59,894 nt of DNA from a virus. The notes under the pieces are model-generated. The model saw only the letters and a list, made by a program, of their open reading frames with translations, was not told the DNA's origin and did not search any database. Every line of letters starts with the position of its first letter. Position 1 is the first letter of the stretch. A program made the translations under genes and the position numbers. The DNA lies in the IMG/VR virus record IMGVR_UViG_3300045988_042358, positions 1-59,894 of that record; one strand, 5' to 3'. Below, piece by piece: positions 4,406 through 50,922 of the stretch.

Positions 4406-4611
4406 TCCAATGCCCTCCACACATCATTAGGTTTATTTATAGTCCACACACTAGGTATTGTGTCTTTAACTAGACACAAACCCTTTTCATTTTCAATTTT
4501 CCCAAAAGGACAAGTTAGGCAGTCGTTATCCTCGCACACTGTCTTGATTATTTTCAGCGCAGTTAGAATGCTTTTTGCCTCTACCACTACTCCGTCAACT
4601 TCTTTTTTCAT
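4402..4611 (-). CDS. hypothetical protein
   Basis: ATG 4611 lies 5 nt after GAGGTGG. Contains a CLTCP motif. Confidence 0.5.
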   Translation of the reverse strand: MKKEVDGVVVEAKSILTALKIIKTVCEDNDCLTCPFGKIENEKGLCLVKDTIPSVWTINKPNDVWRALE

Positions 4612-4969
4612 TCTTTCCACCTCTCAATTCTTCAAAATAGAATTTTACATCGTCAGACACATACTTAACGATTCCAAACCGTTCCGCCACTTGATAGGGT
4701 ATGTTGTCACGCATAAGCCTTTTGTGCAATCTCGATAAGTAGTCTCTGAATCCCTCAATATCAAGTGTGGCTTTGTAATGATTGCAACTCCTACAAGCTG
4801 GCATGTAATTCGATATATCATCTACTCCGCCTATACTAAGTGGTGTTGCATGGTCTACTTGCATATCTTTGTATTCGATTTCAGCACCACAGTAGGCACA
4901 GCAACCGCCGTACTTGAAGTACACCTCTTCTCTTATGCTTTTAGGTATCGGTTTTCTTTTACTCATCAT
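4595..4969 (-). CDS. HNH endonuclease
   Basis: CCAYCGAEI...DHATPLSIGGVDDISNYMPACRSCNHYK (HNH with zinc-binding Cys pairs). Confidence 0.85.
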   Translation of the reverse strand: MMSKRKPIPKSIREEVYFKYGGCCAYCGAEIEYKDMQVDHATPLSIGGVDDISNYMPACRSCNHYKATLDIEGFRDYLSRLHKRLMRDNIPYQVAERFGIVKYVSDDVKFYFEELRGGKNEKRS

Positions 4970-9118: not shown

Positions 9119-9420
9119 TCTGAACCACCCTTTCCATTCCTATATTCTTCTATTGCCTTGTCAACTCTATCTTTACCCCAATCCGCACTACAATACCACT
9201 CAACAGCTTTGAAAACAGGGCTTAACATTTCAAAGAGTGTTTCCACTCTTATTTTAGCTGATTTGATATATTCGACTAACCGCCTTGTATCTTTTGCCAC
9301 ATCTTCATATCCGTTTTGGTTAAGATAATCAGCCATTTCTTCCAATAATTCAATGTTGCTGTACTGCATAAGGTCATCAATGTCTTTTGAATATAAATAA
9401 TTCCAACTTCCACCGCTCAT
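9115..9420 (-). CDS. hypothetical acidic protein
   Basis: 101-aa ORF with 4-nt overlaps on both neighbours. Confidence 0.5.
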   Translation of the reverse strand: MSGGSWNYLYSKDIDDLMQYSNIELLEEMADYLNQNGYEDVAKDTRRLVEYIKSAKIRVETLFEMLSPVFKAVEWYCSADWGKDRVDKAIEEYRNGKGGSE

Positions 9421-9938
9421 TCGTTCTCACCCGCTTTCAATAAATCCATAAATTTCTCATACTGTTTCTGCGATACCTTGTTATGCTCTTTTTCTGGCTT
9501 TAAGCGGATTATAAGGTGCTTTTCAGCGATAGAAGATAATTCCCTTGCTAACACCTTTTTACCTTGTTGTATGCCTTGCATATAGCCTTTAGGTGCTTTT
9601 CTCTCACCTATTGAACCACTAGCACGATTGCCACCCTGTCCGCCAATGCTAACATTCCTAAGCTGATAACCATTATCAGCATACAGTTTGATGTAATACT
9701 TTTCCTTTTCGTCAAGCTGACTTTCGGGAAAATTCAGAAATTCAACTCGCCAACCATAAGGGTTTTTCTCTTTGTCATACAGCTTATGCTTGCGCAAGCT
9801 AAGGTCTATGTGCTGTTCATAGCCTACAAGGTGGCTTGCCAATCTGCTAAGTGTATGTACCGCCTGTCCGATATAAGCGTACTTAAATCCGTTTTCATCT
9901 TCTCGGAGCAAGAAGTATATTCCACTTTTGTCATTCAA
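9417..9938 (-). CDS. GIY-YIG nuclease domain protein
   Basis: GIYFLL...YAYIGQA...EKEKYYIKLY...GYQLRN. TTG start. Confidence 0.7.
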   Translation of the reverse strand: MNDKSGIYFLLREDENGFKYAYIGQAVHTLSRLASHLVGYEQHIDLSLRKHKLYDKEKNPYGWRVEFLNFPESQLDEKEKYYIKLYADNGYQLRNVSIGGQGGNRASGSIGERKAPKGYMQGIQQGKKVLARELSSIAEKHLIIRLKPEKEHNKVSQKQYEKFMDLLKAGENE

Positions 9939-11253: not shown

Positions 11254-11685
11254 TTAATTAAATGGTAATCCATCATCAATTCCATCAGGAATATTCATAA
11301 ATCCGTCATCGTCAGTAGGTGCCGGTCTTGAACTGCTGCCATTATCGCTATTACTGTTTGAATTTTTGCTTTCGCAGAACTCGTGTCTTTCAACAACGCA
11401 ATCATTAGTGTAAACTTTCTGTCCGTCTTTGTTGGTATAGTTGCCTGTCTGCCATCTGCCCTCAACAATAATCTTAGTTCCCTGGTGCAAATACTTCTCT
11501 GCAAACTCTCCATTCTTGCCAAATGCGATGCAGTTAATAAAGTCTGCTGCCTGTTCGCCCTCTTTCTTGAAAGCTCTGTCAACAGCTAATGTGTACCTTG
11601 CTACTGCCACACTTCCATTTACTGTCTGTGAATATCTAACATCAACATCTCTAACAACTCTTCCTGAAATTATCACTTTATTCAT
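11254..11685 (-). CDS. ssb: single-stranded DNA-binding protein
   Basis: MNKVIISGRVVRDVDVRY...INCIAFGKNGEFAEKYLHQGTKIIVEGRWQTGNYT, with the acidic tail DDGLPF. Confidence 0.9.
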   Translation of the reverse strand: MNKVIISGRVVRDVDVRYSQTVNGSVAVARYTLAVDRAFKKEGEQAADFINCIAFGKNGEFAEKYLHQGTKIIVEGRWQTGNYTNKDGQKVYTNDCVVERHEFCESKNSNSNSDNGSSSRPAPTDDDGFMNIPDGIDDGLPFN

Positions 11686-12184
11686 ATTTTTTCCTCTTGC
11701 TTTCTGAAATTCGTTTTCTGGTTTCTTCACTTCTTTTTTGCCCTGTATGATGATATATTGTATGCGCCGAATTTGTCATCATACATAAATTTTCAATTCT
11801 GTTATCATTTTTTATCCCGTTCAAATGATGTATGCAGCAATTTTGCGGTACTTCTATTCCTGTGGCTTTTTCATAAACTACGATATGTTCCATAACGTAT
11901 CCACCTTTATCTGCTCTTTTATGTTCTGGCATTAATATTTGAACGTATCCTTTTCTTGTTTTCCTAACGCCGCCATTCCAATTACTAGCATTTTTACCAC
12001 TTTTGGCTTTTGACCTGTTCAAAAACTCAATTTCTTCATCTCTCTTTAAATTAAGTGAATAAGCTTTTTTATAGATTGCCAAAAATGTTTTATTAGGAAA
12101 TAAGGCGATTAATTCATCATTTGTTAAGCGAGAATATTTATCTTTTAATAAAAGGACTTCCTCCTCACTCCATTTGGGATTCAT
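11678..12184 (-). CDS. HNH homing endonuclease
   Basis: GYVMEHIVVYEKATG...CCIHHLNGIKNDNRIENLCMMTNSAHTIYHH. Start at MNPKWSEEE. Confidence 0.8.
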   Translation of the reverse strand: MNPKWSEEEVLLLKDKYSRLTNDELIALFPNKTFLAIYKKAYSLNLKRDEEIEFLNRSKAKSGKNASNWNGGVRKTRKGYVQILMPEHKRADKGGYVMEHIVVYEKATGIEVPQNCCIHHLNGIKNDNRIENLCMMTNSAHTIYHHTGQKRSEETRKRISESKRKKYE

Positions 12185-12200
12185 AGTTATTATCTCCTTT

Positions 12201-12929
12201 CTAAAAAGGGCACTCATTAGGATTAGCAAGTAACCATTCCTTGTTGCGCTCTGCAACATCTACATTCGCCCCATAAGCAACTTTTTTCATCTTCTCGATA
12301 AAACTATCTTTATCAGAATTTTCACTTGATAGATGGCACATTATGACGTTCTGCAAACTATCTGAATAATTCGCTTTAACAAAATCGCAAGCCGTGTCAA
12401 TGCTTAAGTGACCTCTAAAAACGTGATTAGCTTTGCCTGTGTTATCCCTGTCGATTAAATCCTTGTCATAATTCACACCTAAGAGAATGTGATTTATGTC
12501 TCTAAACCTCCACTTGACAACTTCGCAATCGGTTATGTAAAGCATTCGCCCCATTTCCTTGTGAGTTATCAGAAAGCCATATATTGGACAAGGTGTTCCG
12601 TCTGCATTGGTGTGTGTCCAGCTTCCGTCTATTGTTGTTAGGCCAAAGGGCTGTACTCTAAAATCTCCATTACCAATTTTCATAGGTTTTTCGCTTATGT
12701 ATGGTGCAAATACAGGTATTCCCATAGCTTCAAAATCTTTTACTGACTTGCTATGGTCAAGGTGCTTATGGGTGCATAACACACCCACAATATCTTTAAC
12801 ATTCCAATTCAAGCCTTTTTTAACTTCCTTAATCGGTATTCCGCAATCAAGGATAAGTGTTTCTCCACTGTTGGAAGTTAGCAGATAGCAATTTCCGGCT
12901 GACGATGAGCCTAAGCATTTAAGTTTCAT
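12201..12929 (-). CDS. metallo-beta-lactamase fold hydrolase/nuclease
   Basis: MKLKCLGSSSAGNCYLL...LILDCG...CTHKHLDHSKS (HxHxDH). Confidence 0.8.
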   Translation of the reverse strand: MKLKCLGSSSAGNCYLLTSNSGETLILDCGIPIKEVKKGLNWNVKDIVGVLCTHKHLDHSKSVKDFEAMGIPVFAPYISEKPMKIGNGDFRVQPFGLTTIDGSWTHTNADGTPCPIYGFLITHKEMGRMLYITDCEVVKWRFRDINHILLGVNYDKDLIDRDNTGKANHVFRGHLSIDTACDFVKANYSDSLQNVIMCHLSSENSDKDSFIEKMKKVAYGANVDVAERNKEWLLANPNECPF

Positions 12930-14686: not shown

Positions 14687-16669
14687 CTATACCTCCATAT
14701 TTTCAATCACAAGCTCTTTGTCCTGTGTATGCTTTAACAAGATTAGCTGGTTATCAATCTGTGGTATTCTCCAATCGTCAACACTCTCTGTATCATCAAT
14801 AATAATTGGGAAATTAACGTTTGCTACTTTCTGAAAAGCTCGGCATATGTCAACTTCTGTCAGCACCCTTGCACCATGATTGAGATTTCTTGCATATGCT
14901 TCGCCATTGTAAACAAAGTCGCAGCACTCCTCGGTATCACCATTTAAGAGCGGTCTGAAAAGCTTTGCTGTGGCAAAATCCAGATACTTATTAACATCAG
15001 CCTGTAAGAGTTCGTTCTTCTTACGCGTAAACTCTTTCAACAAGTCAAGTTTTCTCTCCCAATCAGCAATCTCCTGGTTGAGGTCTTTTCTCTTATCCTC
15101 AAGGTCGGCTATGCTATCGTCTATACGCTTATTATTCGCCACACCAAGCTCAATCTTTGTATCAACTGATGAAACTTGCCTTAACAGTTCGTTTCGCTCG
15201 TTTTTGAGCTTTCTGATAAGCTCCGATGTATCGTTTTCGTCTGCAAGGGCTTTCTCTTTTTCCTCGATTTCAGCTTTAAGTGCCTGATACTCACTGTTGC
15301 CTGTCATGTCAATATCAGTAGGTACCATTCCAAGCTCTTTAGCGATGTTATCACGTTCAAACTCGTCAGCAACAGTATCACGCTTTTCTGTCAGCTCCTT
15401 AAGTTCTGCTTCAAGGTCAGCTATTTCTTTCTTCTTGTCCTCAATAGCCTGTTTGAGTTCCTTGCTGTCATTTGATAATGAATTGCCCTTATCCTCAAGC
15501 TCTTTAAGCTTCTTCAATTTTTTATCACTAAAATCAGTTCTCAAACTCTCTATTGTATCTTCCGGCAATCTCTGACCACACATCGGACAATTAACACTGC
15601 TTTCATCAAAGGAAAGTGCCTTTGTTTTTTTCCAGTCAGCACGTACCTTTGCTAAGTTCTCTGTGCAAAATCTAACCGAACCTTCAAAGTTTTCAATGTC
15701 AGCCTTTTTAGTTCTTATTATTGACTCTCCTTTGCGAATTGAAGCGTTGAAATCATCAAGCTGTAACTGTAGCTCCATGCGCTTTTTCTGATTGTCGGCA
15801 TTGGCTTTTCTCTCCATGTCTGAAAGCTCAAACTTAAGGTTCATAATGTCCTCTGTAGCTTTCTGTTTGTCCTTTAAAATCTTATTGTAGTCGGACAGCT
15901 TATCTTCGATTTCATTAAGCCGTGGCTCGTAGGTTTTCTTTTGCAATTCAAGTTCCGCAAGGTCTGTATACTCATTGGTGGAATGGATTGTATCAATCCT
16001 TGTTGAGATTTCGTCTCTTTCCTTGACAAGTCCTTTTGAGCCATTCCTACCGCCTGTGCCGTTTAGCTTGCCACGACATACTTTTTTGAGCTGGTCTACA
16101 TCGCCATCATCAAACATCGGCTTGAGTTCAGCAAACTGCGGAAACATATCGCAGATTTCAGGATTTTTGTGTGTGCCAAAAAAAGTTGAGAGTGCTATTC
16201 TTTGATTCGTTGGCGATTTAAGCAACAATGTCATAGCGTTAAGACAAAATGGCAATATCTTGAGGTCTGCGATATTATCATTAATAAACTCGTTGTATTC
16301 AACCATTTTGTATGTAACATCATTGACATAGTAATCTGTGTGTCCTGAACAAACTTCGCCGTCCTTATTTCTTCCTTGTCTTGTGATTTTTTTCAGAGTC
16401 TTTGCTTTTCCGTCAATCTCAAAGGTAACAGCTCTTATAATGTCAACATCGTCAATCTCAATTCCACATTCGTCATGTGGTCTTATGCCTGTAATCTCTC
16501 TGTCATTCTCATCGTGACAATTCAGCACATCAAGAATAATCCTCTTAACTGTTGATTTGCCGACTTCATTCTGACCGGACAGCACAGTTTTCATAGAAAA
16601 ATCTGTGTCTAGTGTGTCTTTGCCGTAGAATTTACAAAAATTCTGTGCAAAAATATGTGTAATCTTCAT
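14687..16669 (-). CDS. SbcC/Rad50-like AAA ATPase with coiled coil and zinc hook
   Basis: Walker A SGQNEVGKST, a long heptad-rich centre, a CPMCGQ hook-like motif and a C-terminal IIIDD Walker B-like motif. Confidence 0.7.
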   Translation of the reverse strand: MKITHIFAQNFCKFYGKDTLDTDFSMKTVLSGQNEVGKSTVKRIILDVLNCHDENDREITGIRPHDECGIEIDDVDIIRAVTFEIDGKAKTLKKITRQGRNKDGEVCSGHTDYYVNDVTYKMVEYNEFINDNIADLKILPFCLNAMTLLLKSPTNQRIALSTFFGTHKNPEICDMFPQFAELKPMFDDGDVDQLKKVCRGKLNGTGGRNGSKGLVKERDEISTRIDTIHSTNEYTDLAELELQKKTYEPRLNEIEDKLSDYNKILKDKQKATEDIMNLKFELSDMERKANADNQKKRMELQLQLDDFNASIRKGESIIRTKKADIENFEGSVRFCTENLAKVRADWKKTKALSFDESSVNCPMCGQRLPEDTIESLRTDFSDKKLKKLKELEDKGNSLSNDSKELKQAIEDKKKEIADLEAELKELTEKRDTVADEFERDNIAKELGMVPTDIDMTGNSEYQALKAEIEEKEKALADENDTSELIRKLKNERNELLRQVSSVDTKIELGVANNKRIDDSIADLEDKRKDLNQEIADWERKLDLLKEFTRKKNELLQADVNKYLDFATAKLFRPLLNGDTEECCDFVYNGEAYARNLNHGARVLTEVDICRAFQKVANVNFPIIIDDTESVDDWRIPQIDNQLILLKHTQDKELVIENMEV

Positions 16670-19475: not shown

Positions 19476-19801
19476 AAAAGCGCCATATTAGGCAAAATAC
19501 GCTAGGAGGTAAAAACCTTGAAAGCAATTTTGATTTTGCCTGTTCCATATTTGCGAGGTCGCATTTAAAATGTAGCAATCGGTGTAGCGCATTTTGGGCA
19601 GTAAAGCTCGATAAAAAATCATGGTTGGCATGTCCGATAATATGCCGTGCTACGCTAGATACTCCTCTCAATCCGCCAGCTAATGGCAACTAAAATGCTG
19701 AGCTTAAACTGCATAAGTGGCGGAACATTTAAAGAAGCATTGGTACTACACAGTGCGTCGAAAGACTGCAAAATGTATGTGGTGTAAAAAATAAGGCAAC
19801 G

Positions 19802-19837
19802 GCTGTTGGTGGTAGTACACTAACAGCTTTTGTTTTT
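19802..19837 (+). terminator. putative intrinsic terminator inside the switch region
   Basis: GCTGTT-14 nt loop-AACAGC, followed by TTTTGTTTTT. Confidence 0.5.
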
Positions 19838-20040: not shown

Positions 20041-20400
20041 ATGTACGAAAGATATTGTAAATTAAGAGACTCAAAAGGGTTAAATGATTCAGAAGTGGCT
20101 AAATATGGCGGTTTCCCTAAAAGTACTTTTTCAGATTGGAAAAAAGGAAAAAGCTGTCCAAAATTGTTTAAGCTGGTAAAAATCGCAGAATGTCTTGATT
20201 GTTCACTTGATTATTTAGTTACCGGAAAAGAGCACCATTCAGTTGTTGAAGAGGCAACAAAAGACTTGGCTCTGTCGAATATGGATAGTAGAATTAAAGA
20301 CTATGCGTTGAAATTATCTAAATTGTCGGATAAAGAGCAAGAAAATATTATGAATTTAATAGATATGATGTATGAAAATACTCAAAATAAATTAAATTAA
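20041..20400 (+). CDS. XRE-family HTH repressor, cI-like
   Basis: VAKYGGFPKSTFSDWKKGKSCPKLFKLVKIAECLDCSLDYLVTG. AAGGAG RBS. Plus strand, opposite the lytic genes. Confidence 0.8.
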   Translation: MYERYCKLRDSKGLNDSEVAKYGGFPKSTFSDWKKGKSCPKLFKLVKIAECLDCSLDYLVTGKEHHSVVEEATKDLALSNMDSRIKDYALKLSKLSDKEQENIMNLIDMMYENTQNKLN

Positions 20401-21072: not shown

Positions 21073-21378
21073 TTAAAGCACCCCCTCATCCATTAACTGC
21101 CTTGTGTAGTTGTCTATTGCTTCCTCATCAGAGTGCTCGTTAATCTCTTTTGCCTGTTCCATAGCAATAAGATACTGTGAGTATTCATCCTGTGTCAGTT
21201 CACGTTCCTCGTACTCCCAATGCTTAGGCTTGTAAGTAAAATCATCCTCACTCCCTGTTGCTTCAACCGATTTAATGTTTTTTCGCTGATAAACGATATT
21301 CGGAGAAGATGTTGTGTCAATATCAAGCGGTTTGCCCGATTGCATACTTTCTACTAGCTTATATTCTGTCATATTCAA
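21073..21378 (-). CDS. hypothetical acidic protein downstream of the DGR RT (XkdW position)
   Basis: 101-aa ORF that overlaps the RT stop by 20 nt. Acidic, not Avd-like. Confidence 0.5.
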   Translation of the reverse strand: MNMTEYKLVESMQSGKPLDIDTTSSPNIVYQRKNIKSVEATGSEDDFTYKPKHWEYEERELTQDEYSQYLIAMEQAKEINEHSDEEAIDNYTRQLMDEGVL

Positions 21379-22468
21379 TACACCTTGCCTTTCTGTCTAC
21401 TGTTGAAATTTTGCGCTTTAGTTTTCCAAAATCTGCAAATGGTTTGATGTACTCCCTGTAATAATCGTACATATCGCAATTTTTAATCCACGCAAGAGCG
21501 GAAACCATTTGTTTTGAGTCAAATATTGTAACCTTTGTTTTCCGCCATATTCTAACTGCCTTAGCTCTTATTTTCTTAAGGATTGTTTTCCTTAAGGTGG
21601 TTCTATTCCTATAGAATTTATACCCCATAAAATCAAGCGGTCTACCATATGTTGCCGGCTTTTCATTCTTGCTAACATATGGATTTTGGGGCAAATAATG
21701 AAAACGAAATATCTGCCAGTTTGCTTTGACTGTCAAGCCCAATTCCGCAAGACTGTTATCAATCACGGCTTTTACCTTACGCAATTTCTTTTTGCTTGCA
21801 CAAAATATAGCCATATCGTCAACATAGCGTGCATATTTCAGCTCAATGCCGAGTGATTTGATTTCATGGTCAAACTCGCTCAAATACCAGTTTGCAAGCC
21901 ATACAGAGGTATAAAAGCCAAGTGGCAATCCATTAGGCACGCAATGTATAACATTTTCAACAATCTGCATGAATTTAAAATCTTTGATTTTAGATTTAAG
22001 CTTTTCGATTAATTTATCCTGTGGAATACTAGCGTAAAATTGCTTCACATCAAGCTTATAGCAATATTTAATATTTTTACCGCCTTGCCTTATCCATTTG
22101 CATATGTGCTTCTTGCCATACGCTCCGCCACGCTTAGGAACCGAGCCGTAACTGTGCTCATACATTCCTTTGTTAAACATGGGTTTAAGTACGTTCACTA
22201 TCATGTGATGTACTATTGACTCCATAACTGTCGGTATTACTATCTTGCGTTTCTTTCGTGATATTCCGTCATATATTTCTTTGGGCTTATGCTCAAAAGG
22301 TGTGAAGTTAATCGCATATTCTCTAATTTTGGGTATGTATGTATCAAGGTCTGCTAAAATTTTCCTAACCTTATTTCTTCTCTTTTTACCCTTAGAGAAG
22401 TTTTGAATTGCAAGTTTTATATTATCGTCTGAAATAAATTCAGCATATAGATTTCTGTATGTTATCAT
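21359..22468 (-). CDS. DGR reverse transcriptase
   Basis: Start at MITYRNLYAEFISDDNIKLAIQNFSKGKKRR (the ORF is open to 22507). Motifs: KRKIVIPTVMESIVHHM, LDVKQFYASI, GLPLGFYTSVWLANWYL, YARYVDDMAIF. Confidence 0.9.
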   Translation of the reverse strand: MITYRNLYAEFISDDNIKLAIQNFSKGKKRRNKVRKILADLDTYIPKIREYAINFTPFEHKPKEIYDGISRKKRKIVIPTVMESIVHHMIVNVLKPMFNKGMYEHSYGSVPKRGGAYGKKHICKWIRQGGKNIKYCYKLDVKQFYASIPQDKLIEKLKSKIKDFKFMQIVENVIHCVPNGLPLGFYTSVWLANWYLSEFDHEIKSLGIELKYARYVDDMAIFCASKKKLRKVKAVIDNSLAELGLTVKANWQIFRFHYLPQNPYVSKNEKPATYGRPLDFMGYKFYRNRTTLRKTILKKIRAKAVRIWRKTKVTIFDSKQMVSALAWIKNCDMYDYYREYIKPFADFGKLKRKISTVDRKARCIEYDRI

Positions 22469-22601
22469 ACGTATTCTCTTCCTATCCTCTCTACCACGTT
22501 CGACCATATCCTACTACTAGCAGTAGCTTGCATCGAGTTGATTTTTACCAAGGGGTACGGAATTTAGTCTGCATTCATTTTATCCCATGAATGATAGGTA
22601 C

Positions 22602-22709
22602 AGAAGCCCCGATGTTCCACCCCGCATTACCAGCCTCGTTGTTCAAGTTCACGTAGAACGCACCACAATGACGGCCGTCGTGCAGGGGGCCACCGAAAAG
22701 AGCAAAGGC
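22602..22709 (-). repeat. DGR template repeat (TR)
   Basis: Matches 22843..22950 at 101 of 108 positions. Every mismatch is T on the plus strand (A on the coding strand) in this copy. Confidence 0.9.
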
Positions 22710-22768
22710 GCAAACTAAATCCCTTATATAAAATTAACCACACACGTTTATAGTTACAAATTTTCTTA

Positions 22769-22806
22769 GGAGAAACGCGGTTTCTCCCTTTCTGCTTAGG
22801 CAGAAA
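22769..22806 (-). promoter_or_regulatory. two adjacent hairpins just downstream of VR and the target stop codon (DGR retrohoming-enhancing stem-loop and/or terminator)
   Basis: GGAGAAAC-GCG-GTTTCTCC (22769-87) and TTTCTGC-TTAG-GCAGAAA (22789-806). Confidence 0.5.
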
Positions 22807-22827
22807 TTCCCTCTTCCCTGTTGCAAG

Positions 22828-24096
22828 TTATTTGTAGGAAAGAGAAGCCCCGATGTGCCACCCCGCAACACCAGCCCCGTCGCTCAAGTTCACGCAGAAC
22901 GCACCACAATGACGGCCGTCGTGCAGGGGGCCACCGAAAAGAGCAAAGGCTATAATTGCAATATTAAACCAACAGCCATCAGGATAATAGGTCGATGATG
23001 AGCCTGTAATTGATGTTGGAAACATGCCTAATGCCGTGTATAACATATCTTTGATATATCCGCCACTTGTACCACTAGGAGTTGAATTAGGTATCTCGAT
23101 ATATCCTGTTCCATCAGTGTTATAGTTAGTTGCTTTGCTTCCATCCTTTGTTGATGGAGACAGCTTGATTTTCACTATGCCATTAGCAAGGATAAGTCCA
23201 ACTGTTCTTCGCCACTGATTGCCGTAATAATTCTCCATTCCAAATATTTTAACTCCGGCTTTTCCAGCATTTTCGCCCCAAAATAAGCCTTTGCCATTCA
23301 TTGTGCCGGTCTTAAGTAACAAGTTTTCATCACTGGCATTTTCGCTCATGCCTCGACCGAATACATCTTGTGTGTCGGTAGATTTTCCCATGATGATAAG
23401 TAAGATATTAATCAAGAGTCTGTCAACGTACTGCTCGATTTCGTAGCCCGTACCATTAGCTCTTGCATATGTCATTTCTTGGCTGGCTGTTTTCGATTTA
23501 ATAACTGTTTGACCGCTTATTGAGCGTAGCTTATTGTTACTGTCAAGTGAGCCATTATAAATTGGCGTGTAAAAATGAGATTTTTCATTACCATTAATAT
23601 CAATGAAATTCAGATTTTTAAAATCTTTATCAGCTTGGTAGTTGGCAACATAAAGGCTTGCACTGTTTGGATTGCCTTTGTCGGGTTCAATTTTCCACCA
23701 TATAATGTCTGTGCCATTGCCCCATTCCATCATAGCATTTCCATCGTAATCAATGCTTGCTACATCTGACGCACCGCCATCTATTTTTTTAGTCAAGTCA
23801 TTCTCGTTGAGGTAATAGTCAACCTGTCCATTCGTTTTAAGCATACATGGTTTTGGCATAAAAAAGGCATTCGCCCATGAGCCGTAGTCAAAAGTTCCGC
23901 TCGTGAAATTCATCTTTGCCGGAGTCATGCCTACCGCGTCTGCTAAGTATCTGACTCTAGTTTTTGGGTTACTATCCGCGCCATTAATGTGAACACCATA
24001 AATAACTCTTCCCTCGCTTAATTTTGTGCCAAGGGCTTTAATACTCTCAACAATCGCTTGCCCTGTTGTGTCTGATATAATGTCTATTCCGCTCAT
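22828..24096 (-). CDS. DGR target protein: tail receptor-binding protein with a C-terminal C-type-lectin-like variable region
   Basis: The C-terminus ...ALFGGPLHDGRHCGAFCVNLSDGAGVAGWHIGASLSYK is encoded by VR. The gene lies after the tail fibre genes. Confidence 0.85.
   Translation of the reverse strand: MSGIDIISDTTGQAIVESIKALGTKLSEGRVIYGVHINGADSNPKTRVRYLADAVGMTPAKMNFTSGTFDYGSWANAFFMPKPCMLKTNGQVDYYLNENDLTKKIDGGASDVASIDYDGNAMMEWGNGTDIIWWKIEPDKGNPNSASLYVANYQADKDFKNLNFIDINGNEKSHFYTPIYNGSLDSNNKLRSISGQTVIKSKTASQEMTYARANGTGYEIEQYVDRLLINILLIIMGKSTDTQDVFGRGMSENASDENLLLKTGTMNGKGLFWGENAGKAGVKIFGMENYYGNQWRRTVGLILANGIVKIKLSPSTKDGSKATNYNTDGTGYIEIPNSTPSGTSGGYIKDMLYTALGMFPTSITGSSSTYYPDGCWFNIAIIAFALFGGPLHDGRHCGAFCVNLSDGAGVAGWHIGASLSYK
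22843..22950 (-). repeat. DGR variable repeat (VR)
   Basis: Covers the last ~40 codons of the target. Differs from TR at TAC>TGC, AAC>AGC, AAC>GAC, GAG>GGG, AAT>GTT and AAC>CAC. Confidence 0.9.
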
Positions 24097-24098
24097 AT

Positions 24099-24614
24099 CT
24101 AATCCTCCTTGCTTACATTGAGTAATCCAGCACTTGTCACGGAAAAAGTAATGCCTCTTCCGTTTGCTTTCTGCTCGACTAGTCCGGCTTGCTGTTCTGC
24201 TCTTTGCGCAGCTTCATTTGCAGCCTTTGTAGCTGCGTTTGCTTGACTTACCGCCGTATCAATCTTTCCTGAAGCTTGTGCAACCTCGTCCGCTTTTTGT
24301 AAAGCAGTTTGCGCTGATTTTTGAGCCTGTGAAGCAGAATTGCTTGCCGAGTCGGCTTTTTCTGTCGCAGTTTGCGCTGATTTTTGAGCCTTTTCTACCG
24401 ATTCTGCCATGCCGTCAAGATAACTCTGAATAAGTCTTTGAATTTCAACGTTAAAATCCTCAACAGTTCCCATTCGCTTAACTATTCCCGGTGCGAAACA
24501 CATCCATATCTGCTGTTTTTTTGTGTCGGAGTCGGTCGATACCGCCCATTCTCCAGCTTTCATTTTTGAGGGGTCAAACTCCGCGTATGCCCCTCGTCTC
24601 ATTTGAATTGCCAT
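24099..24614 (-). CDS. tail fibre protein with an Mtd-N/hyaluronidase-N-like N-terminus and a coiled coil
   Basis: MAIQMRRGAYAEFDPSKMKAGEWAVSTDS resembles the IQLRRG...GE...TD fibre N-terminal motif. Repeated AQKSAQTA coiled coil. Confidence 0.55.
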   Translation of the reverse strand: MAIQMRRGAYAEFDPSKMKAGEWAVSTDSDTKKQQIWMCFAPGIVKRMGTVEDFNVEIQRLIQSYLDGMAESVEKAQKSAQTATEKADSASNSASQAQKSAQTALQKADEVAQASGKIDTAVSQANAATKAANEAAQRAEQQAGLVEQKANGRGITFSVTSAGLLNVSKED

Positions 24615-31883: not shown

Positions 31884-32942
31884 TTAACCTTTGAGCAAAT
31901 AGTATGTTGTAATCAATCCAACATAGCCATCTTGCTTAAGACCTCTATTCTTTTGAAATACCATGACACATTTAGTGAGATAGTCGCTCCACTCTTTGTA
32001 ACCAATATCAAGTTTGTAAAAATGATACTTGTCATGCAGAGTTTTTCTCAACCACTTAATGGCTGTCGGGCAGTAATGTTTCTGACCACTCCACAGATTG
32101 TGGTTTTTTGCGAATGCCTGCGAGTTGGCTCCAAATTTACCATCTTCTTTCAGTACATCAGCTCCTTTGAGGTCGAAGCCTACATTCATAGCGTGCTGCC
32201 ATTTTCTTACATCATCATTATCGAGGTAATATTCCTCATTGCCTTTCCAAGCGTTATTCTTTACCGGAGTTGCTGCTGGTGTCGGAGTTGCTATTGGTGC
32301 CGGATTATTCTCTATTCCATCACCCTTGTCAAGCTCAATATAGAGTAAGTTAGCGTCAGTGCTGTTATTCAGACCGCTACAAGTAAATGCGCTCGAATAC
32401 TGCCAACCATACAGTGGATGTTGTATAACAGGCTTCTTTGCGCTATTAGGCTCATCACCAATAGACATTCCCTTAGTTGATGGATAGCGTGCAATCCAAA
32501 ACGGACAATTAATCTGATTTGCGTATGGCGCAATATACTGATTGTAAAAGCTAAGCCCTGTGTATACACCAAAGTTAAGCCCGGCACTCTTGATAACACT
32601 TTGATATGTGTTGATAATATCAATAAGTGTCTGTCCGAGTCCTTGCTGGCACTTATCCTCAACATCTAACCAAACAAAGGTTTTTCTTCCGGCAAGTACC
32701 TCAATCACTCTCTGTGCGTCCGTCTTTGCCTTATCTACTGTTGTAGCGTATGAGTAGTTGTAAACACCTTGTATTGGCATTCCTACATCAGTACAGCCTT
32801 TCCAATTTTGCTCAAAGGTTTTATCCGGATTAAGGTCTTTGCGGATTATTTTAAGGATTGCAAACTGTACTCCAGCCCACTTAACCTTACTCCAATCAAC
32901 ATTTCCTTGATATGACGATACGTCAATTCCTTTATATGCCAT
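31884..32942 (-). CDS. endolysin: GH25 muramidase plus two PG_binding_1-like repeats
   Basis: KGIDVSSYQGNVDWSKVKWAGVQFAILK...FVWLDVED. C-terminal KWQHAMN...EDGKFG and FQKNRGLKQDGYVG. Confidence 0.85.
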   Translation of the reverse strand: MAYKGIDVSSYQGNVDWSKVKWAGVQFAILKIIRKDLNPDKTFEQNWKGCTDVGMPIQGVYNYSYATTVDKAKTDAQRVIEVLAGRKTFVWLDVEDKCQQGLGQTLIDIINTYQSVIKSAGLNFGVYTGLSFYNQYIAPYANQINCPFWIARYPSTKGMSIGDEPNSAKKPVIQHPLYGWQYSSAFTCSGLNNSTDANLLYIELDKGDGIENNPAPIATPTPAATPVKNNAWKGNEEYYLDNDDVRKWQHAMNVGFDLKGADVLKEDGKFGANSQAFAKNHNLWSGQKHYCPTAIKWLRKTLHDKYHFYKLDIGYKEWSDYLTKCVMVFQKNRGLKQDGYVGLITTYYLLKG

Positions 32943-49072: not shown

Positions 49073-50125
49073 TTAATATTCAATAATGCCTTGCGCCAAC
49101 TGTAGCAGATAGTCACTTTTAGCAAAATGTGTTATCGAGTAATTAGTCTCTTTCCTATGTGTTCGTCTGAAATGCTCGTTAACCATTCTATCAAGCCCTG
49201 TAAGCCCTGTTTCGTCTGTTAGGTAAACATCTGTCCACTCAAAGTGATTATGTTCTGTATCGGTCACATTAGAAAGCGACAGGCATACATTAGTCAGAGT
49301 CTTATCGGTCAAGATTGGGTGAACCTTGCAAAAACCTGTCTCATACATACTCATGTATTTGCGAAATGTTCTTTTGACAGCTACCCTAATTGTCTTGTTC
49401 TCGATATTATCATCGCAGATTGCAAAAAACCTACAGACCATATCATCTTTCTTTGCTTGCATATCCTGTCGGGTGACTCTTGCCGTCTGTTCTTCGGGAA
49501 CAGATGTATGTACCTCTCCATCAATGTTAGTTGATGTATGTACCTTATCAGTAATCCCTGTTTCGTAATTATTGTTAAAGTAATCATTGTTAGTAATCCC
49601 TGTTAAAAGAGTTGCATCTTGTGGCATTCCCGAATTACACTTTGTGTTATTCCCTTGGGAATTACATTTTGTGTCATTCCCGTCTGCCTGTTTATGTAAC
49701 TCCTGTCCTTTATCTTCTGCTATAACCTCTTGTCTGATATTTTCTTCCCATTTTTTAACTTCTGCGTTGATAACATCATAATTAGGTCGTATATGTATAG
49801 TCGGCATTGAGTTAAATTTGTATTTTGCTGTAATTACAAATTTCTTTTTCACCAACGATTTAATTGCTTTATCATACTGTCTTTCAGTAATCCGTATTTC
49901 TTCCCACCAGTCTTTTCTTTGCTTTGCAATCCAATATTCGCCGTCCTTGTATATCTTAACTTTGCTCTTATTGTCTTTATTTGGCGCAAACCAATATAAA
50001 ATCCTTGATAAAAGTGTTCCCTCTATCAAGTCACCTGTTATGTCAATGTATTTATGGAATGTGTGATTGCACCTTGCTGATGATAAGAAATTAACTTTTG
50101 TTTGGATTTCGCTTTCTGATAGCAT
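49073..50125 (-). CDS. putative winged-helix DNA-binding/replication-initiator-like protein with internal DNA repeats
   Basis: Start at MLSESEI. GTLLSRILYWFAPNK...YWIAKQRKDWWEEIRITERQYDKAIKSLVKKKFV. Direct repeats lie within the gene. Confidence 0.35.
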   Translation of the reverse strand: MLSESEIQTKVNFLSSARCNHTFHKYIDITGDLIEGTLLSRILYWFAPNKDNKSKVKIYKDGEYWIAKQRKDWWEEIRITERQYDKAIKSLVKKKFVITAKYKFNSMPTIHIRPNYDVINAEVKKWEENIRQEVIAEDKGQELHKQADGNDTKCNSQGNNTKCNSGMPQDATLLTGITNNDYFNNNYETGITDKVHTSTNIDGEVHTSVPEEQTARVTRQDMQAKKDDMVCRFFAICDDNIENKTIRVAVKRTFRKYMSMYETGFCKVHPILTDKTLTNVCLSLSNVTDTEHNHFEWTDVYLTDETGLTGLDRMVNEHFRRTHRKETNYSITHFAKSDYLLQLAQGIIEY

Positions 50126-50429
50126 ATTTATTACCTGCCTTTCCGATAATAGCCTTATTAACAAAACAACAAACAGGCACTAAGGCTTGTGCTTTTCGGT
50201 AGCTAACCTAGTTTGTTGTAATTGATGTGGTGTGGATTTGAACCACACATGAAATTCCGTTAGTTAGTCTGCACCTACGAATAGGGAAAAATGGATTTTT
50301 ATTTTCTAACGGATTTATTGGTGTAATTGCTTACAGCTTTTTACCATACTTGTTAATAGCAATTCTTATCGCACACCGTTTTCTTAACCATTGATTAACG
50401 TTTACCCATTCCGTCACACATCAACAATC

Positions 50430-50499
50430 GGCAAGGTTGGGAATCGAACCCACGACAAATCAGCTAATAGCTGACTGCTCTACCACTGAGCTACATGCC
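50430..50499 (-). tRNA. tRNA-like element or degenerate tRNA (Asn-like body, AUU at the anticodon position)
   Basis: Canonical D arm GCUCAGUGGUAGAGC and T loop GGGUUCGAUUCCC. Against a functional tRNA: two mismatches in the acceptor stem, one in the T stem, and a palindromic anticodon arm. Confidence 0.4.
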
Positions 50500-50850: not shown

Positions 50851-50922
50851 CAGGGCATGCTGGATTTGAACCAACGAATGCGGGAATCAAAATCCCGTGC
50901 CTTACCGCTTGGCGAATGCCCT
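50851..50922 (-). tRNA. tRNA-Gln (anticodon UUG)
   Basis: A 72-nt cloverleaf folded by hand: acceptor AGGGCAU/AUGCCCU, D arm GCCAAGCGGUAAGGC, anticodon arm CGGGA-UUUUGAU-UCCCG, T arm GUUGG-UUCAAAU-CCAGC, discriminator G. Confidence 0.9.

Follow-up and report, generated by a model that had tools for sequence, protein, structure and literature searches.

Diversity-generating retroelements (DGRs) are among the commonest functions encoded by gut phages, with tens of thousands recorded in the MGV catalogue (PMC8241571). The accessory protein Avd, a basic four-helix bundle of about 128 aa (PF05635), was found in only 74% of the 372 DGRs surveyed by Wu et al. (2018), and 75 of the 372 had an accessory-less layout termed 'Architecture A' (PMC5758913). 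In the same survey, a whole-genome profile search located no remote avd for the avd-less cassettes, a 'Lineage 3' without avd was described for which Avd-independent homing was suggested, DGR components were noted to be able to act in trans, and a small, acidic protein of 160-169 aa, CH1, was reported only from avd-less DGRs (PMC5758913). Cornuault et al. (2018) detected no Avd in Epona and several further phages of Faecalibacterium (PMC5883640). Here, a DGR is described from the virus record IMGVR_UViG_3300045988_042358, the whole 59,894-nt sequence of which was analysed and is referred to as the window. A reverse transcriptase (RT), a non-coding template repeat (TR) and a tail gene ending in a variable repeat (VR) lie together on its minus strand. 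The locus is best explained, with a probability of about 0.92, as an active accessory-less DGR consisting of target with VR, TR and RT in a temperate tailed phage, the host of which is likely to be Agathobacter. Activity on the last gene of the tail module is argued from two observations, namely that variation is limited to template adenines and that each VR copies the polymorphisms of its own TR.

Template-directed adenine variation

A 108-nt direct repeat connects TR (22602-22709) with VR (22843-22950), and the two copies differ by seven mismatches. All seven are an A in TR and a G, T or C in VR, a pattern with a chance probability of about 4e-7 given the 16 adenines present in 108 nt. An earlier reading of this DNA, made without database searches (the sequence-only reading), had listed these coordinates, the seven adenine-only differences and the resulting codon changes, and all of them were reproduced exactly. 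Its placement of the variation at the C-terminal end of the protein was likewise borne out: the 422-aa open reading frame (ORF) contains VR in frame at its 3' end, as codons 383-418 of 422, and residues 401-414 are altered. Each of the 16 TR adenines falls at codon position 1 or 2 of the VR frame, and up to 11 codons are recodable in this copy, corresponding to about 4e9 DNA variants. No third copy of the repeat was found in the window, and the 133-nt gap between VR and TR contains no ORF. The homology of the two repeats stops abruptly after GGGGCTTCT, beyond which the flanks diverge. In DGRs the direction of homing is set by the elements IMH, at the 3' end of VR, and IMH*, at that of TR.

Related loci were taken from a viral-contig collection, in which 44 loci encode an RT at least 89% identical to that of the window; these loci, the window and one ENA contig supplied 43 TR/VR pairs. 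TR adenines accounted for 519 of the 533 TR/VR mismatches (A>G 212, A>C 160, A>T 147), and variation among the VRs was limited to the TR-adenine columns. Sixty-one percent of TR adenines were changed in the cognate VR, as against 0.37% of the other bases, and the 43 loci contained 40 distinct VR sequences versus 21 distinct TR sequences. Across the clade, TR adenines occupy codon position 1 ten times, position 2 eleven times and position 3 never, and the consensus TR contains eight AAC codons. Minor TR alleles at non-adenine sites, which are mostly synonymous, were matched in the cognate VR 103 times out of 104, and VR is therefore taken to be continually overwritten from its own TR. Two relatives, L023 with the same TR as the window and L009 with the same RT DNA, carry quite different VRs, the differences lying at adenine sites only. 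Adenine-biased TR/VR pairs were also present in 16 more distant relatives (33-90% RT identity), including Butyrivibrio phage Arawn, Faecalibacterium phage Epona and the metagenomic record MT835666. One-way transfer of information from TR to VR is thus supported indirectly, by comparison between samples.

The templates themselves vary between strains, and TR adenine columns are polymorphic more often than the remaining columns (13 of 21 versus 15 of 87; odds ratio 7.8, p = 1e-4). The polymorphic columns noted in the repeat of the window are 21, 22, 27, 30, 48 and 87. This excess of polymorphism, together with the loss of adenines from TR, suggests occasional VR-to-TR conversion or homing into TR, by which the template would be eroded.

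Reverse transcriptase and cassette RNA

The DGR genes are all on the minus strand, and the features of the cassette and its immediate neighbours are listed below with the evidence for each.

22828..24096 (-): DGR target gene, 422-aa tail protein; phrog_5302 match and hhalign comparison with Epona gp58.
22843..22950 (-): VR, target residues 383-418; repeat and mismatch pattern.
22769..22806 (-): tandem hairpins, candidate target-recognition hairpin or cruciform; DNA fold.
22710..22723 (-): TR-enclosing helix, 5' strand (GGGAUUUAGUUUGC), abutting TR on its upstream side; pairing and covariation.
22602..22709 (-): TR, non-coding, 16 adenines; direct repeat.
22469..22601 (-): spacer (Sp), 133 nt, from TR to the RT start codon, acting in cis within the DGR RNA.
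22559..22572 (-): TR-enclosing helix, 3' strand (GCAGACUAAAUUCC), formed by spacer nt 30-43; pairing and covariation.
22572..22593 (-): short spacer hairpin in the interval from TR to the helix strand, 7-bp stem and 8-nt loop.
22478..22557 (-): RT-18 RNA motif (Rfam RF03021) with P1 hairpin, invariant AAAAU and P3 helix; covariance-model match.
21359..22468 (-): DGR RT, 369 aa, pI 9.9, with LGFYTSV and YVDD; RVT_1 and phrog_1423.
21073..21378 (-): small acidic ORF, about 99-101 aa, overlapping the 3' end of RT; phrog_20201.
24099..24614 (-): coiled-coil fibre protein of 171 aa, encoded upstream of the target; Alanine_zipper and weak tail-fibre PHROGs.

The RT probably starts at the ATG at 22468, as judged by alignment to the Bordetella RT, although the reading frame is open to 22507. 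With this start the protein has 369 aa, and the 133-nt spacer of the sequence-only reading holds; the YVDD reverse transcriptase that it had placed after TR is an intact ORF in which both YVDD and LGFYTSV are present. Profile matches were obtained to RVT_1 (E = 7e-22) and phrog_1423 (E = 7e-89). The best match among solved structures was Bordetella bRT (8ub7, E = 7e-14), and a BLASTP comparison with Brt gave 23% identity (E = 4e-20). In the alignment to bRT, R74 is retained, I181 is replaced by L, a change permitted by the signature, and Q187 by V, and LGFYTSV corresponds to residues I181-Q187 (IGSLTSQ), the terminal Q being replaced by V.

This non-canonical motif is real and is a clade-wide variant. 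Among 120 homologs, the last two residues of the motif are SQ in 89, SV in 21, SH in 3 and SL in 1; homologs about 57-97% identical to the window RT have TSV (TSL in one case) with YVDD, and those with identities of 53% or less have TSQ with YMDD. The substitution spectrum did not differ significantly between TSV and TSQ relatives (chi-square p = 0.17). R74 and I181 of bRT promote adenine mutagenesis, and the Q187P change was found by Handa et al. to leave the frequency of adenine misincorporation unchanged (PMC7826257); in the cryo-EM structure of bRT, Q187 touches the incoming deoxynucleoside triphosphate (bioRxiv 10.1101/2023.10.23.563531). The SQ signature is therefore not regarded as defining for a DGR, because Q187P is neutral and the SV clade is adenine-mutagenic in nature, and the TSV variant is mechanistically unsurprising.

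The 3' part of the spacer, up to the ribosome-binding site of RT, is occupied by a marginal match to the RT-18 RNA motif (42.4 bits versus a gathering score of 41.3). Seven divergent relatives have RT-18 (41.8-57.6 bits) in the corresponding interval from TR to RT, and a control scan of BPP-1 returned the Phage_DGR RNA in its spacer. In the RT-18 consensus fold, 9 of 11 pairs are kept through two-sided compensatory changes among ten divergent copies. The thermodynamic stability of the spacer was not unusual relative to shuffled sequence (z = 0.2). The structured spacer of the sequence-only reading is thus upheld by the RT-18 covariance match and by covariation, and not by free energy.

Immediately upstream of TR, the 14 nt at 22710-22723 pair at 14 of 14 positions with spacer nt 30-43 (22559-22572), enclosing TR. 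When eight loci were compared in a fixed register, cognate partners formed 12-14 of 14 pairs versus 10.0 +/- 2.1 for non-cognate partners, with alternative Watson-Crick pairs at nine positions and two invariant terminal G-C pairs. Epona has a 13-bp counterpart of this helix. The helix is followed in order by a short hairpin (RT-18 P1) and the invariant AAAAU. In BPP-1, the 'cPRT Stop' is composed of an avd:Sp duplex, a short stem-loop and unpaired adenosines in A-minor contacts, and Handa et al. propose that it is conserved in distant DGRs (bioRxiv 10.1101/2023.10.23.563531). Here the spacer strand of the helix begins at nt 23-30, 22-29 nt from the end of TR, versus nt 59 in BPP-1 (58 nt). The shortfall is about the length of the 31-nt Avd-binding stem-loop, and the spacing therefore appears to leave no room for one. 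The hairpin at 22572..22593 is shared by the close clade and one further locus (L054) but is ambiguous in the most divergent loci, and its conservation is weakly supported; a conserved primer:template hairpin at this place, separating TR from the helix strand, was considered and rejected, being clear only in the close relatives and L054. Across 37 distinct relatives the cis elements are intact and nearly invariant.

The two hairpins that the sequence-only reading had noticed 3' of VR (22769-22806) folded as DNA far better than shuffled sequence (-12.9 kcal/mol, z = -4.28, 0 of 200 shuffles as good). They are situated 36 nt downstream of the end of the VR/TR homology. Tandem hairpins of unrelated sequence occupy the same site in 12 of 12 divergent relatives, and in RT-less relatives the hairpins are deleted along with TR and RT. 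No T-run terminator was called at the hairpins on the coding strand, and promoters and terminators near TR on that strand did not rise above shuffled expectation. The consensus of Guo et al. (2011) for target-recognition hairpins is a GC-rich stem of 7-10 bp with a GRNA loop, 4-34 bp from VR; the tandem hairpins fit a candidate element of this type that departs from the consensus.

Taken together, these elements suggest the following course. A transcript would take in the 108-nt TR together with about 14 nt of flank on its 5' side and the 133-nt spacer, and the 5' flank would pair with spacer nt 30-43, looping out TR with the RT-18 structure just downstream. The RT, possibly primed in cis from the spacer, would copy TR into cDNA, misincorporating opposite adenines, with the helix acting as a putative stop to cDNA synthesis. 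The cDNA would then be exchanged for VR in the 3'-terminal part of the last tail gene, probably with the assistance of the tandem hairpins in homing, and up to 11 codons could be recoded at the tip of the presumed receptor-binding protein. In this scheme the RT is presumed to work without a protein partner.

Target gene, small acidic ORF and rival explanations

The target (22828-24096) is the last gene of the tail module. It matched phrog_5302 'tail protein' (E = 8e-94), and in hhalign it aligned with the Epona DGR target gp58 with a probability of 99.4% (E = 2e-21); Epona gp58 was assigned to the FGE/Mtd superfamily by Cornuault et al. (2018) (PMC5883640). It is likely to be a receptor-binding protein. 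The AlphaFold2 (AF2) model of the target was poor (pLDDT 51, with the C-terminus below 50), and a Foldseek search, which returned nothing, was meaningless because of this. Upstream of the target are a tail protein of 906 aa that carries an S74 chaperone domain and the 171-aa coiled-coil protein (24099-24614; Alanine_zipper, E = 7.5e-7). The Mtd-N-like N-terminus proposed for the latter was not confirmed, with sub-threshold matches to Pfam Mtd_N (E = 0.068) and, by BLASTP, to Mtd (E = 0.47). Its gene contains a 41-nt direct repeat (24288-24328 and 24351-24391, 88% identical, 63-nt period) that encodes a repeated coiled-coil segment, AQKSAQTA.

Avd (PF05635) was not matched by any of the 39 ORFs of the window in a Pfam scan, nor in the precomputed Pfam annotation of related contigs of up to 17 kb, and no HRDC or MutS-like domains were found in the neighbouring genes. 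The claim that the element lacks Avd is accordingly correct for the window and the related loci. The ORF at 21073-21378, which had been described as acidic, has a pI of 4.36. Its AF2 model (pLDDT 79) comprises three strands and two helices and is not a four-helix bundle; its fold had no match in PDB and matched only uncharacterised phage proteins in BFVD. The suggested check for a cryptic Avd by structure prediction showed no Avd likeness, and this candidate was rejected after Foldseek searches of the model against PDB and BFVD and an hhalign comparison with BPP-1 Avd were all negative for Avd.

Eighty loci encoding the small acidic protein were retrieved (L068-L147). The RT was full-length or nearly so in 53 of these, was reduced to approximately its last 29 codons in 11, and was absent from 16. 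In all 27 loci without a complete RT the small ORF is intact and directly follows the target homolog, and in close relatives lacking a complete RT it is 91-99% identical. The cassette deletions have at least five distinct junctions, with left edges at about 22814-22821 and right edges at 21396-21448, and in one locus the deletion took place in two steps. The deleted loci all retain a previously diversified ('frozen') VR in addition to the small ORF, and a further partial deletion (L043/L070) removes TR and the 5' end of RT. Because the small ORF stays intact without RT, it is considered to track the tail gene and not the RT, and it is most likely a tail-module gene. It lies directly upstream of the XkdX gene, a position that we take to be the XkdW slot in the fibre-XkdW-XkdX order of PBSX-like phages. 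Identity with XkdW was considered and rejected, since the position alone fits and Pfam, NCBIfam and PDB gave no support. The family to which the protein belongs (phrog_20201) has an N-terminal motif of about P.EID..SSP..VY.RKNI and is always encoded after homologs of the target tail gene and before XkdX (L001-L066, L068-L147). The protein may serve the receptor-binding protein as a chaperone or in its assembly.

These results bear on the explanations that compete with an active accessory-less DGR. A functional replacement of Avd by the small acidic ORF, perhaps akin to the acidic CH1, is an unlikely explanation that nevertheless accounts for several facts: a homologous acidic ORF (87-180 aa, pI 4.2-4.7) overlaps or directly follows RT in 9 of 11 divergent loci, including those of Epona and Arawn with their other tail architectures, and the overlap suggests translational coupling. 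Against it, the ORF survives in the 27 of 80 loci without a complete RT, through at least five independent junctions, a target homolog is found upstream of it wherever upstream sequence suffices, and it occupies what is presumably an XkdW-like position directly before XkdX. Its model has no fold match to Avd or PDB, and its profile does not match BPP-1 Avd. CH1 is also small, acidic and confined to avd-less DGRs (PMC5758913), but CH1 proteins are longer, at 160-169 aa, and the likeness is one of description only. It is still less probable that the element is a canonical Avd-dependent DGR for which avd is supplied in trans from the host chromosome or another prophage. The inactivity of bRT without Avd (bioRxiv 10.1101/2023.10.23.563531) and the known trans action of DGR components (PMC5758913) would favour such an arrangement, and the survey for Avd covered only the 60-kb window and the flanking loci. 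However, Avd is absent from all 39 window ORFs and from the annotated related loci of up to 17 kb, the whole-genome profile search of Wu et al. found no remote avd for avd-less cassettes, the helix strand lies 22-29 nt from the end of TR, as opposed to 58 nt in BPP-1, with no space for a BPP-1-like 31-nt Avd-binding stem-loop, and the avd-less layout is kept in different phages down to 33% RT identity.

The possibility that the lineage was once active and that this copy is decaying or frozen is regarded as very improbable. The TR of the window has 16 adenines where relatives have up to 23, with A-to-C/G changes at five to six sites, its VR differs at only 7 of the 16, and the cassette is often lost in relatives (27 of 80 loci), but the RT ORF is unbroken and keeps the catalytic YVDD, the cis elements are maintained across the 37 distinct relatives, and the relatives with identical RT DNA (L009) and identical TR (L023) have other VRs that differ at adenine sites only. 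An ordinary duplication beside a group II intron, retron or defence RT, in other words no DGR at all, has a negligible likelihood. Sub-threshold NCBIfam matches to such RTs were obtained, as any RT of this kind would give, with scores far under the cut-offs (group II TIGR04416, 112 versus 300; Drt3a, 96 versus 200; retron St85, 67 versus 235), no intron or retron RNA family was found in the window at Rfam gathering thresholds, 97% of the 533 repeat mismatches fall at TR adenines, and VR follows its own TR. An affiliation of the RT with the group II intron or retron type, which the sequence-only reading had named as evidence against a DGR, was therefore not seen, bRT being its best match among solved structures. 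The nearest relatives with an annotation are RTs from phages in which adenine-biased TR/VR pairs were observed here.

Several points weigh against the preferred reading of an active accessory-less DGR. The TR of the window has 16 adenines versus 21 in the clade consensus, five to six having been lost, and the diversification potential of this copy is therefore lower. The evidence for activity consists of differences between samples and not of read heterogeneity within a sample. The signature [I/V/L]GxxxSQ is absent from the window RT, which is without the terminal Q. The C-type-lectin fold proposed for the target was not confirmed, as searches with Pfam, PDB and the Mtd profile were negative: no match to the target sequence was found in Pfam or PDB, and the hhalign comparison with Mtd was not significant. 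The support that this fold has is indirect, through the homology of the target to Epona gp58, and both the fold and the binding to a host receptor are putative. The register of the TR-enclosing helix was initially chosen by eye, and several of the compared sequences are mutually related. The hairpin stems are 43-50% GC with loops CTAA and CGC, as compared with the GRNA of the BPP-1 consensus. Finally, a protein cofactor unlike Avd could still take part. The narrower proposal that the clade represents a minimal two-component DGR, in which the basic RT with its TSV and YVDD motifs and its own RNA, reduced to a BPP-1-like core of stop helix, short hairpin and unpaired adenines in or beside RT-18 and having lost the Avd-binding stem-loop, would carry out self-primed, partner-free, adenine-mutagenic cDNA synthesis, is made tentatively, at slightly less than even odds.

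The many genomes of this one phage constitute a natural experiment in which an RT without Avd or the terminal Q is still cleanly adenine-specific, and they indicate, from natural variation, that the signature motif can do without this residue. The RT-18 motif and the covarying TR-enclosing helix furnish an RNA model for the avd-less class, which is biochemically unstudied. The details that are new are the link of RT-18 to an avd-less DGR clade and the helix without room for an Avd-binding element, to which is added the repeated disappearance of the cassette among members of one phage population. Should the RT work alone, it would offer a compact alternative to the bRT-Avd pair of engineered mutagenesis systems, and if the DGR has only two components, a function would be defined for Rfam RT-18 and a smaller chassis for targeted mutagenesis would be available.

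Phage context and comparison with described systems

The gene content of the window is that of a temperate tailed phage, with an integrase, an excisionase, RecT, SSB, a portal of SPP1 type and a capsid protein of E type. Homologs situated on contigs of more than 300 kb bear the source annotations Agathobacter rectalis or Agathobacter sp., and the phage is likely to be a prophage of an Agathobacter host. A Bacteroidaceae host was considered and rejected. The sole match in the species-representative genome collection was a metagenome-assembled genome contig labelled 'Bacteroidaceae bacterium' (L008 / L004, CAVKBM010000179.1), which is probably mis-binned because its close relatives carry Agathobacter names. 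No GenBank phage was similar to the window at the DNA level.

Other features of the window were noted. A FuFi-1 RNA (RF02986, 122 bits) is located at 19672-19832 (+), just upstream of a cI-like repressor gene at 20041-20400 (+). An int-alpA RNA (RF02996) at 50153-50218 (-) starts in the last 12 nt of a 363-aa ORF (49073-50164), which has no Pfam match, and runs just past it; two tRNA genes, at 50430-50499 (-) and 50851-50922 (-), are nearby. A separate pair of integrase and Tn916-type excisionase genes is present at 179-1893. Genes for two HNH endonucleases, together with a weak match to GIY-YIG (4595-4969, 9417-9938 and 11678-12259 (-)), are dispersed in the replication and recombination module near SSB and RecT and may encode homing endonucleases. 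A glycoside hydrolase family 25 (muramidase) gene at 31884-32942 (-) adjoins the tail genes, and XkdX is not succeeded by a holin/endolysin pair as it is in phages Epona and Arawn. In a related prophage contig with a TSQ-type DGR (L006), a RAGATH-18 RNA at 15771-15831 (-) adjoins an IS605 OrfB/TnpB-like gene.

The element resembles the BPP-1 DGR (mtd-avd-TR-brt) in transferring adenine-mutagenised TR sequence to a C-terminal VR in a tail protein, and its RT is homologous to that of BPP-1. Both have a structured spacer RNA in which a helix between the 5' flank of TR and the spacer, a short hairpin and unpaired adenines recall the 'cPRT Stop', and both have inverted repeats downstream of VR. The differences are several. 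The window has no avd and so falls outside Architecture B (avd-TR-RT), the spacer belongs to RT-18 and not to the Phage_DGR family of BPP-1, and the helix strand has its first position at spacer nt 23-30, as against nt 59. The hairpins of the window are in tandem, less GC-rich and without GRNA loops, the target has no significant match to Mtd, and Q187 is replaced by V.

A likeness is also found in Epona and the Butyrivibrio phages Arawn and Idris, the RTs of which are homologous to that of the window (36% identity for Epona and 39%). Epona and Arawn share with it the layout of target, VR, TR, RT, small acidic ORF and XkdX, together with adenine-biased TR/VR differences, but their RTs keep the canonical SQ and YMDD. 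The spacer of Epona matches RT-4, in contrast to RT-18 in the window, and Epona is a P2-like myovirus, whereas the portal of the window is of SPP1 type and its tail module differs.

Of the RT-n motifs described by Weinberg et al. (2017), only RT-10 was tied to a DGR, and the association of the others was speculative (PMC5737381). The spacer of the window scores at the gathering threshold of RT-18 and its covariation fits the structure of the family; what differs is that RT-18 is found here consistently between TR and RT of adenine-mutagenic DGRs, in eight loci. No paper linking RT-18 to such DGRs was found in a literature coverage that was incomplete.

A close correspondence exists with Architecture A1 of Wu et al. 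(2018) and with their avd-less Lineage 3, to which the RT may belong. Target with VR, TR and RT are arranged on one strand with no accessory gene detected, the TR/VR differences are adenine-specific, and VR is at the 3' end of the target. The locus has the TR-RT core and adjacent target of Architecture A1 and lacks avd, HRDC and MutS-like (MSL) genes, CH1 being compared by description only. It differs in that TSV and YVDD replace TSQ and YMDD in the clade of the window. The sequence-only reading of a compact Avd-less DGR with a non-canonical RT acting on a tail gene therefore stands and is made much stronger by the comparison of the 43 loci, and the novelty that it implied was overstated, because the avd-less class had already been described (PMC5758913, PMC5883640) and Q187P is neutral (PMC7826257). 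The element is a well-documented example of that class and not a new system.

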